The notes beneath the pieces were generated by a model that worked only from the letters and a program-made list of their open reading frames with translations, had not been told where the DNA came from and ran no database searches. A program made the translations under genes and the position numbers. A stretch of 37,827 nt of DNA from UHGV virus genome UHGV-0317053. One strand, written 5' to 3'. The stretch is from a virus. Shown piece by piece: positions 2,239 through 37,827 of the stretch. Positions within the stretch are counted from its first letter, which is position 1. Each line of letters starts with the position of its first letter.

Positions 2239-2313
2239 GTCCTCTTAGTTAAATGGATATAACGAGCCCCTCCTAAGGGCTAATTGCAGGTTCGATTCCT
2301 GCAGGGGACGCCA
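2239..2313 (+). tRNA. argW: tRNA-Arg (anticodon CCU)
   Basis: 75-nt cloverleaf: acceptor stem GUCCUCU/AGGGGAC, anticodon loop CUCCUAA, T-arm GCAGG-TTCGATT-CCTGC, CCA end; 3' end is G-CCA (discriminator G) rather than A-CCA. Confidence 0.95.
2299..2313 (+). other. attL core (ctgcaggggacgcca) within tRNA 3' end
   Basis: Matches attR copy at 37603..37617 with one mismatch (g vs a). Confidence 0.8.
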
Positions 2314-36537: not shown

Positions 36538-36890
36538 ATGTTTTCGAAATGGAAGGGTTTCTTCGTGGGAGATGTGTACCGCGAGATCTGAAAGTAAATG
36601 AAACAGATGCTGAATACCTAGTGCGTAAATTCGATGCGCTTGAAGCTAAATGTGCAGCACAGGAAAACAAAGTAATACCAGTGTCAACTGAACTGCCACC
36701 AGCAAATGAAAGTGTTTTGTTATTCGATGCTAACGGAGAAGGCTGGCTAATTGGCTGGCGTTCTCTCTGGTACACCTGGGGACAAAAAGAAACCGGAGAA
36801 TGGCAGTGGACATTTCAGGTCGGGGACCTTGAAAACGTCAATATCACTCACTGGGCAGTAATGCCAAAAGCACCGGAGGCTGGAGCATAA
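36528..36890 (+). CDS. yfdS: YfdS-like protein (DUF551)
   Basis: 120 aa; order as in K-12. Confidence 0.65.
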   Translation: MRMNVFEMEGFLRGRCVPRDLKVNETDAEYLVRKFDALEAKCAAQENKVIPVSTELPPANESVLLFDANGEGWLIGWRSLWYTWGQKETGEWQWTFQVGDLENVNITHWAVMPKAPEAGA

Positions 36891-37195
36891 TGACCACTTT
36901 TACCGACAAAGAACTGATTAAAGAAATTAAAGAGCGTATCAGCAGCCTTGACGTGCGAAACGATATTGAGCGCCGTGCTTATGAAATCGCACTCCTATCT
37001 CTGGAAGTAGAACCAGATGAACGCGAAGCTTATGAATTATTCATGGAAAAGCGTTTCGGTGACTTAGTAGATCGTCGGAGAGCAAAAAACGGCGATAACG
37101 AATACATGGCATGGGATATGACTCTCGGTTGGATCGTCTGGCAGCAACGAGCTGGTATCCATTTTTCAACAATGTCACAGCAAGAGGTGAAATAA
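36890..37195 (+). CDS. yfdT: YfdT-like protein
   Basis: 101 aa; order as in K-12. Confidence 0.65.
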   Translation: MTTFTDKELIKEIKERISSLDVRNDIERRAYEIALLSLEVEPDEREAYELFMEKRFGDLVDRRRAKNGDNEYMAWDMTLGWIVWQQRAGIHFSTMSQQEVK

Positions 37196-37323
37196 TGGAG
37201 CCATACAGCCTCACACTCGATGAGGCATTTTCATTTATCAAGATATCCAGACCTACCATCGCCGCATCAATGCGGTTTTTTTTATTACCTGATTTGCAGG
37301 TTCGATTCCCTATTCGGAGATAG
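37195..37323 (+). CDS. ypdJ: small ORF (YpdJ-like, possible excisionase remnant)
   Basis: 42 codons, ATG overlaps yfdT stop; contains a terminator hairpin and a tRNA T-arm-like fragment, so coding status doubtful. Confidence 0.3.
   Translation: MEPYSLTLDEAFSFIKISRPTIAASMRFFLLPDLQVRFPIRR
37262..37283 (+). terminator. intrinsic terminator upstream of torI
   Basis: stem ccgca/tgcgg, 4-nt loop, followed by T8. Confidence 0.55.
37294..37309 (+). other. 16-bp exact copy of the argW T-arm (ttgcaggttcgattcc)
   Basis: identical to tRNA positions 2284..2299; lies ~300 bp inside the prophage from attR. Confidence 0.8.
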
Positions 37324-37328
37324 CACTC

Positions 37329-37529
37329 ATGCAACACGAACTACAACCTGATTCACTGGTTGATTTGAAATTCATCATGGCTGATACTGGCTTTGGTAAA
37401 ACCTTCATCTATGACCGGATTAAGTCCGGCGACCTGCCAAAAGCCAAAGTTATCCACGGGCGAGCAAGATGGTTATATCGTGACCATTGTGAATTCAAAA
37501 ATAAGCTCTTAAGCCGCGCCAATGGGTAA
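37329..37529 (+). CDS. torI: excisionase / recombination directionality factor (TorI, AlpA-family HTH)
   Basis: 66 aa; matches remembered TorI of KplE1; adjacent to attR. Confidence 0.8.
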   Translation: MQHELQPDSLVDLKFIMADTGFGKTFIYDRIKSGDLPKAKVIHGRARWLYRDHCEFKNKLLSRANG

Positions 37530-37602
37530 AATAGCGGGTAAAATATTTCTCACATCTAAAAAACACCATTCCAATCAATCCCCTGCTACTCCAGGTAGAT
37601 GT

Positions 37603-37617
37603 CTGCAGGGGACACCA
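37603..37617 (+). other. attR core (ctgcaggggacacca)
   Basis: displaced tRNA 3' end with A discriminator and CCA. Confidence 0.8.
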
Positions 37618-37712
37618 TCCTTGTGTTTATCCCTAAAACCACATAAAAACCGTAAATTAAATTCGAACTAGCAGGCCGAATAAGGCACACCAGGAACTCG
37701 TGGTTTTATTCA

Positions 37713-37827
37713 TTATGAAGTGGTTTTTACCTGTTCTCTTAGCCAGGTAATAAACGCTTCAATTTTTGGCCACTGCCTGCCCGGTAATGTGGTGATGTAA
37801 TAATGCTGATGGCATTTCACCGTCATA
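37713..37827 (-). CDS. dsdC: 3' end of LysR-family regulator (DsdC-like), 5' end outside window
   Basis: open frame from window edge to TAA at 37713 (...TTLPGRQWPKIEAFITWLREQVKTTS); K-12 synteny torI-dsdC recalled. Confidence 0.5.
   Translation of the reverse strand, partial: MTVKCHQHYYITTLPGRQWPKIEAFITWLREQVKTTS

Follow-up and report, generated by a model that had tools for sequence, protein, structure and literature searches.

A conserved T-loop box upstream of torI at the left border of the torI-attP-intS module in a KplE1/HK620/Sf6-type prophage

The viral genome UHGV-0317053, analysed here over a single stretch of 37,827 nucleotides (nt; hereafter the window), carries a partial copy of the T-arm of the tRNA gene argW upstream of the excisionase gene torI, and part of this copy, which we call the T-loop box (GTTCGATTCCC), is conserved across modules of the TorI family. 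Our best explanation overall, to which we give about even chances, is that the region forms the left border of the torI-attP-intS module of a prophage of HK620/Sf6/KplE1 type and is built of three layers, namely a mosaic joint, an intrinsic terminator and the box. We have high confidence in its descriptive parts, which are the joint, the terminator and the finding that the box is conserved without being either an arm-type or a TorI site. It is also conceivable, if on balance unlikely, that the box is a copy of the bacterial half of the att site, kept for a purpose and read by the integrase to hold excisionase expression down.

ARAGORN found a single tRNA gene in the window, argW, which encodes tRNA-Arg(CCT) (2239-2313). 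The 3' end of argW carries the 16-base-pair (bp) core of KplE1 and HK620, here as CTGCAGGGGACGCCAT, and a core that differs from it at one position, CTGCAGGGGACACCA(T) or in full CTGCAGGGGACACCAT, lies in attR at 37603-37618. Because these two cores (2299-2314 and 37603-37618) bound it, the approximately 35 kb between them is identified as a prophage of the KplE1/HK620/Sf6 integration type, in which intS adjoins attL and torI adjoins attR. The 16-mer TTGCAGGTTCGATTCC occurs exactly at 2284-2299, within argW, and at 37294-37309, and nowhere else in the window even when two mismatches are allowed; the number expected by chance is 0.03, and none of 100 shuffles gave two hits. The shorter 10-mer GTTCGATTCC taken alone is not significant in this window. 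In argW the match covers precisely the part of the tRNA gene that borders the att core. The second copy lies inside the prophage, its end 294 bp short of the attR core, and directly follows a hairpin and a run of eight T residues. An earlier note on this DNA had described an exact T-arm match some 300 bp inside the prophage from the attR core, directly after a T8 terminator, and in these respects it was right: the 16-mer is not common elsewhere in the window, the terminator was recovered both by a terminator scan and in the RNA fold, and related phages that integrate at argW do conserve the sequence near attP.

This conservation is partial. Across lineages only 10-13 of the 16 bases are kept, and full identity to the tRNA (16/16) is specific to the E. 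coli lineage. A family consensus, TTCCAGGTTCGATTCC, derived from all 17 clusters having a Shine-Dalgarno sequence and anchored on that sequence alone, is identical to the tRNA segment at 15 of 16 positions, and because of this the 16-mer is very probably related by sequence to the argW T-arm; a tRNA origin of the box is plausible. The 16-mer is the E. coli version of the box GTTCGATTCC(C), whose conserved core of 11 nt corresponds to the argW T-loop and the first two bases of the 3' T-stem and includes one C that is not in the tRNA.

To compare lineages we gathered TorI homologues from annotated phages, species-representative genomes and viral contigs. The locus search returned 80 identical E. 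coli loci, also when run with a TorI alignment, a large protein search reached only TorI relatives of at least 59% identity, and single divergent queries (the excisionases of phiEt88 and Emek) reached others. With proteins clustered at 85% identity, 11 of 21 clusters have the exact GTTCGATTCC ahead of the excisionase gene and 3 more have a variant that differs by one base. In 37 of 43 distinct sequences the Shine-Dalgarno sequence starts 6 nt beyond the box; the 5-nt spacer, by contrast, is variable, as is the flank upstream of the box. Hosts of the box include Escherichia, Salmonella, Erwinia, Pantoea, Serratia, Edwardsiella, Citrobacter and Enterobacter, and it is kept with distant excisionases such as those of Salmonella phage Emek (49% identical to TorI) and Erwinia phage phiEt88 (36%), the lowest protein identities at which it is still present being 36-39%. 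In Erwinia phage Midgardsormr38 (L084, ~2463-2494) AGGTTCGATTCCC occurs twice in tandem, at a distance of 16 bp, immediately before the Shine-Dalgarno sequence of the excisionase gene. The segment running from the terminator through the box to torI is found in 1405 of 5426 complete E. coli genomes, nearly always once and always at torI, so that roughly one complete E. coli genome in four has the box, as do prophages of many enterobacterial genera. What selection keeps in the conserved box is, as judged from these alignments, its sequence and not a hairpin.

The terminator that precedes the box is conserved in another manner. In the window it consists of a 6-bp stem with four GC pairs followed by T8, and it forms the strongest helix in the RNA fold. 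When the 80 E. coli prophage loci were compared with about 60 more distant ones, at least eight different GC-rich hairpins were found at the same position (among them CCGCAT/ATGCGG, CCGCC/GGCGG, GCCGC/GCGGC, CCCGGCC/GCCGGG, GCCCTC/GAGGGC and CTCGCC/GCGGGG), each followed by a T-run and (A)TTGCCTG(G); a pair count based on MAFFT alignment picks up only part of this replacement. Because unrelated hairpin sequences occupy one place, always with a T-run after them, this predicted and otherwise ordinary terminator can be regarded as a structure kept by selection. It would shield torI from transcription of the early-left genes, leaving antiterminated or strong read-through transcripts as the only source of TorI; this agrees with published work in which control of excision lies in the expression of the excisionase (PMC2951348).

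The remaining layer is the joint. The stretch 36890-37256, which covers the yfdT-type gene (orf28 of SfV) and the start of an excisionase gene, xis, is 97-98% identical in DNA to SfV, SfII and SfIV, and 37261-37618, with torI (hkaC of HK620, gene 18 of Sf6) and attP, is 96% identical to HK620 and Sf6; with 36890-37640 as query, phages of SfV type match positions 1-367 and HK620 and Sf6 match positions 372-729. The xis remnant is absent from the DNA of Sf6 and HK620. Astride the joint lies an open reading frame (ORF) of 42 codons that starts at an internal methionine of a listed ORF (37111-37323). It had been described as YpdJ-like; its coordinates, 37195-37323, stand, and its standing as a gene does not. 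SfV Xis matches PF12728 and shares 18 of its first 21 residues with the ORF and none thereafter, the ORF itself has no Pfam match above threshold, and its frame is not conserved, in that other lineages read the box in a different frame or have no ORF there. The window is about 95% identical to K-12-type genomes across the region, and the RefSeq annotation of one such genome has no gene or other feature between yfdT and torI. Because the Xis match ends at residue 21, the frame is unconserved and RefSeq has no gene here, we identify the ORF as a pseudo-ORF, a by-product of a module exchange in which, by these alignments, xis lost everything after codon 21 and its start became attached to the torI-attP-intS module; a protein-coding gene YpdJ was rejected, the ORF being absent or frame-shifted in relatives. 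Salmonella prophages of Emek type carry a similar 5' remnant of an SfV-type xis (L087, 2401-2476; L197-L268) that has several cut points and reads the box in another frame, and the xis remnants, whatever their length, all end before the box. The coordinates of all features are collected in Table 1.

Table 1. Features of the window that bear on the torI upstream region, in order of position
Feature	Position	Strand	Description	Basis
argW, tRNA-Arg(CCT)	2239..2313	+	T-arm 16-mer at 2284-2299; attL core at 2299-2314, CTGCAGGGGACGCCAT	ARAGORN, sequence, pattern searches
yfdT-type gene (SfV orf28 homologue)	36890..37195	+	last intact gene of the SfV/SfII/SfIV-like early-left segment	DNA identity, annotation
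5' remnant, 21 codons, of SfV-type excisionase gene (HTH_17 family)	37195..37257	+	18/21 residues identical to the SfV Xis N-terminus	
42-codon 'YpdJ-like' pseudo-ORF	37195..37323	+	xis remnant read through terminator and box to a TAG inside the torI ribosome-binding site	
Mosaic joint	37257..37262	.	SfV-like segment / HK620/Sf6-like torI-attP-intS module	DNA alignment
Intrinsic terminator (predicted)	37261..37283	+	hairpin 37261-37276 (GCCGCATCAATGCGGT) and T8 37276-37283	terminator scan, fold
Small hairpin ACCUG/CAGGU	37287..37301	+	uses CAGG of the T-arm copy	fold; consensus fold in 8/8 terminator-bearing lineages, without covariation
16-mer identical to argW T-arm	37294..37309	+	5' T-stem strand, T-loop and 2 nt beyond	pattern search
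T-loop box GTTCGATTCCC	37300..37310	+	part of the 16-mer conserved across TorI-family modules	lineage comparison
torI Shine-Dalgarno sequence GGAGA	37316..37320	+	at the distance of 6 nt from the box that most lineages show	
torI (excisionase / recombination directionality factor)	37329..37529	+	66 amino acids; 100% identical to HK620 HkaC and Sf6 gp18	
Functional attR as used in vitro	37506..37618	+		published primer attR-IHF2 (PMC3509656) mapped onto the sequence

What the box might be is suggested by the layout of the att core. The single mismatch between attL and attR sits at core position 12, which places strand exchange to the left of that position. In attP an inverted repeat TGTC...GACA flanks TGCAGGG; this is likely to be the layout of a core-type site, with TGCAGGG as the probable 7-bp exchange or overlap region. 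To the left of the core, compared in L084-L088 and L093-L102 among others, most lineages read TTCGATGT(A/C) followed by TGCAGG, keeping TTCGAT. In this window, a degenerate T-loop is likewise kept in the attP/attR DNA left of the 16-bp core (CAGGTAGATGT followed by CTGCAGG, within 37590-37618). Because in attB the box sequence stands directly left of TGCAGGG, the probable overlap, the box probably corresponds to the bacterial half-site (B) of attB. The core-binding/catalytic domain of the integrase is then a candidate reader, as it is the only DNA recognition in the module that is as constant as the box, the argW target being fixed. IntS as the ligand, with the box as a candidate core-type half-site, is therefore a possibility that we would still call doubtful. 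In such a mechanism IntS would bind the box through its core-binding domain, as a core-type half-site, and in the lysogen bound IntS would dampen the expression of torI, perhaps by acting as a roadblock over the ribosome-binding region. According to published work on KplE1, excision is decided by how TorI is expressed, and neither the promoter of torI nor its control has been characterised (PMC2951348).

Several points weigh against an integrase-read half-site. Because some lineages lack the box, several of them by a clean 26-nt deletion (CCTGG joined to AGATAA), it is advantageous rather than essential and can evidently be dispensed with. All TorI relatives found integrate at argW, so our sample gives no contrast between target tRNAs. 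The C half-site of attP itself varies (TTCGATGT, TTAGGTGT, TGTGATGT), and for this reason core recognition by IntS may be too loose to account for an invariant 11-mer; isolated core-type sites of tyrosine recombinases are, moreover, usually weak. The constant distance of 6 nt to the Shine-Dalgarno sequence and the constant strand fit a role at the RNA level equally well, and the ligand may be a host DNA- or RNA-binding factor.

An RNA-level element is indeed the main rival, and one we consider unlikely but serious: the box would lie in the leader of the torI mRNA, where occlusion of the Shine-Dalgarno sequence, a host RNA-binding protein or T-loop mimicry would set TorI translation. In every case the box lies on the sense strand, and its spacing hardly varies, at 6 nt to the Shine-Dalgarno sequence and 19 nt to the ATG; it fits the T-loop consensus GUUCNANNC, and a consensus fold pairs its UCC with the GGA of the Shine-Dalgarno sequence in 8 of 8 sequences. 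This pairing is, however, only 3 bp long and shows no covariation, the local fold is not unusual (z = -1.3) and there is no Rfam match. Nor is the T-stem kept: weighted by protein cluster, 55% of lineages can form pair 52-62 and 5% can form pair 51-63. We rejected an RNA mimic of the T-arm, with a 5-bp stem and a 7-nt loop, since only the pair G53-C61 is constant. A tRNA or tRNA pseudogene was also rejected, as ARAGORN finds only argW and no Rfam tRNA match at E<=10 was obtained in 36900-37827; no lineage compared has tRNA similarity upstream of the 16-mer.

The earlier note had proposed that the T-arm copy is either a vestige of an older or longer attP or an arm-type binding region for IntS or TorI, and none of these proposals has fared well. 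A functionless vestige, whether of attP or of captured argW DNA, seems improbable to us. It would account for the identity of 15-16 nt to argW, for the way in which box and 16-bp core together would rebuild the 3' half of the tRNA, and for the extension of tRNA identity to the left in E. coli (TTGCAGG) and to the right in Serratia, Pantoea and Edwardsiella (CCTG). Yet the box and the Shine-Dalgarno sequence are invariant at excisionase identities of 36-49%, while the adjacent spacer and flanks can no longer be aligned, and it is because of this invariance amid diverging neighbours that we do not take the box for a decaying vestige. Where deletion has shortened the neighbouring xis remnant, it ends at the box, and attP has its own degenerate T-loop by the core, so that the box is a second copy and not a piece split off. 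For the same reason we dropped the idea that torI was inserted into a once-contiguous tRNA segment of 31 nt.

That the box is a TorI operator, at which the excisionase would bind GTTCG and autoregulate torI, as it represses PintS through GTTCG/GATCG sites, is in our view decidedly improbable. In its favour, intS is repressed through TorI sites in attL whose cores are GTTCG, GATCG and GTCCG (PMC2951348), GTTCG opens the box (37300-37304), and Midgardsormr38 has two box copies. Comparison of the P' arms of L001, L084-L088, L195, L236, L257, L264 and L267 argues otherwise. At the positions of I1-I5, excisionases with the motif GKTFIY go with GTTCG/GTTCT/GATCG repeats and those with TxKYFY with (A/G)TTACC/GTAACC; the distant repeats were assigned to the excisionase by position and by analogy with KplE1. 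In phiEt88, L257 and L264 the excisionase is of the TxKYFY type and its sites have switched to TTACC/GTAACC, yet the box is unchanged, and the ATTCCC that follows GTTCG in the box is equally conserved but does not occur in the TorI sites of attL. The box occurs with all combinations of arm-type and excisionase repeat types, which is consistent with its being neither an arm-type site nor, probably, a TorI site. One of the loci, L195, looks hybrid, with both excisionase repeat types and mixed arm-type repeats.

We think it very improbable that the region is a cII-activated integration promoter, pI, in which the T-arm copy would be the -35 or activator region and transcription would start near the torI ATG, giving intS without TorI. 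This reading comes from the GenBank records: that of HK620 marks a 'phage integration' promoter and, at TTGC-N5-TTGC by the small hairpin of Table 1, a cII site, that of Sf6 marks pI, and both phages have TTGC-N5-TTGC and TTGCAG. These annotations are predictions, however, and the upstream TTGC is polymorphic among E. coli prophages, being TTAC (37285-37288) in this window, which gives TTAC-N5-TTGC. The TTGC repeats are absent outside the E. coli lineage though the box persists there, and the spacing is N5, not the N6 of lambda cII sites (TTGC-N6-TTGC). A promoter scan found no sigma-70-like promoter on this strand, and intS has a mapped promoter of its own (PMC2951348).

IntS arm-type sites are repeats with a TAAA motif (PMC2951348), present within attR as GGGTAAAAT at 37524-37532 and 37536-37544, and a 135-bp attR supports excisive recombination in vitro (PMC3509656). 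The repeats depend on the lineage, being GGGTAAAA or GGGCATAA, and are found at 37524-37544 and in attL; the box has no TAAA, resembles neither form and stays constant while the repeats change, and we rejected it as an arm-type site. It also lies about 200 bp outside the 135-bp attR, which begins at 37506. A distal arm-type site, or some other part of attP needed for recombination, can hardly be what the box is, for even though it lies in the P-arm direction from the core and the published assay concerned excision and not integration with full attP, it is remote from the attR fragment that works in vitro, is unlike the changing arm-type repeats, and is missing from whole lineages. An att core or secondary attachment site was rejected as well: the left half of the box region equals the B half-site, the next 7 nt, CTATTCG, share one of seven positions with TGCAGGG, and the right half reads GAGAT, also the Shine-Dalgarno sequence, versus GACAC, so that there are no two inverted half-sites around a matching overlap.

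Pseudomonas relatives of AlpA type have a convergent int arrangement, and relatives of the integrase at 30-38% identity (YeP5, VW-6S and ST101-KPC2phi6.3) lack an excisionase gene ahead of attP. Scanning for other T-loop variants before GGAGAT-ATG recovered mostly true tRNA genes, together with a P2-like ogr leader. In L281 and about 50 similar viral contigs of ~38 kb from P2-like phages, GTTCAACTCC stands 4 nt upstream of GGGAGAT-ATG of an Ogr-like zinc-finger gene, which may be a coincidence of the search pattern.

Parts of this arrangement have been noticed before. In E. coli K-12, ypdJ of KplE1/CPS-53 occupies the same place between yfdT and torI and is annotated as a pseudogene, the remnant of an excisionase gene; what is added here is the type of donor (an SfV-like xis, 21 codons) and the joint. 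The HK620 'pI / cII site' and the Sf6 'bsq2 boundary sequence' (AF335538, AF547987) are features on the same DNA that overlie the 16-mer, and the segment from terminator to torI is 96% identical, whereas the records speak of a predicted promoter and a mosaic boundary, make no mention of the identity to a tRNA T-arm and predate the wider conservation of GTTCGATTCC(C). The KplE1 map of attL and attR, with its IntS arm-type sites on the P and P' arms, the TorI sites I1-I5 and IHF (Panis et al., PMC2951348, PMC3509656), describes the same recombination module, and its TorI sites share GTTCG with the box; the box, in contrast, falls beyond the mapped attR, is none of the sites described there and does not change along with arm-type or TorI sites. 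Tandem att relics beside tRNA genes, 3'-end fragments of the tRNA that successive integrations leave behind, similarly place tRNA-derived sequence in or beside an integrated element, but such relics repeat the core or identity block, whereas the copy here is a part of the tRNA outside the identity block, 294 bp inside the phage and under purifying selection. In lambda, xis and int are controlled by the tL terminators, by pI inside xis and by sib retroregulation, and there too excisionase expression is gated by terminators and cis elements beside att; the order here is instead torI-attP-intS, with an autoregulated promoter for intS itself. We know of no counterpart of the T-loop box in lambda. 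Literature searches found no description of the tRNA identity or of the wider box conservation, and nothing mechanistic on the motif or on ypdJ. The novelty is thus a modest one, a putative conserved cis element newly described at a control point of a well-studied recombination module.

Were the box indeed read by the integrase, it would be an example of a phage reusing target-site recognition for regulation, and the recognition that picks the tRNA target would also set the threshold of excision, a link to the decision to leave lysogeny that is undescribed in tRNA-integrating phages. A conserved element 6 nt from the torI ribosome-binding site offers a concrete handle on excision control. Should the box have no function, what is left is a well-documented mosaic joint with an ordinary terminator, together with a use for annotation, namely that ypdJ-like ORFs should not be called genes.

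Some minor observations concern the same loci. The scan called a second terminator-like hairpin at 37208-37226 (GCCTCACACTCGATGAGGC with a T-rich tail), within the xis remnant and hence formerly coding. In the deletion variants L097, L266, L269, L271 and L274-L276 the terminator module is joined directly to the Shine-Dalgarno sequence (ATTGCCTGG followed by AGATAA), which fits loss of the box between short repeats. The excisionase gene of Emek is probably annotated too long in GenBank, where its coding sequence has 88 codons and starts at a GTG. Contigs L094 and L108, labelled as Actinomycetes and Parachlamydiaceae metagenome-assembled genomes, hold typical enterobacterial torI modules and are probably contaminated or mis-binned. 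At the tRNA discriminator position, attL has G and attR has A (GGGGACGCCA versus GGGGACACCA), and therefore the prophage gives argW a G73 3' end in this lysogen; the G form of the core also occurs in lineages L097, L236 and L266-276.

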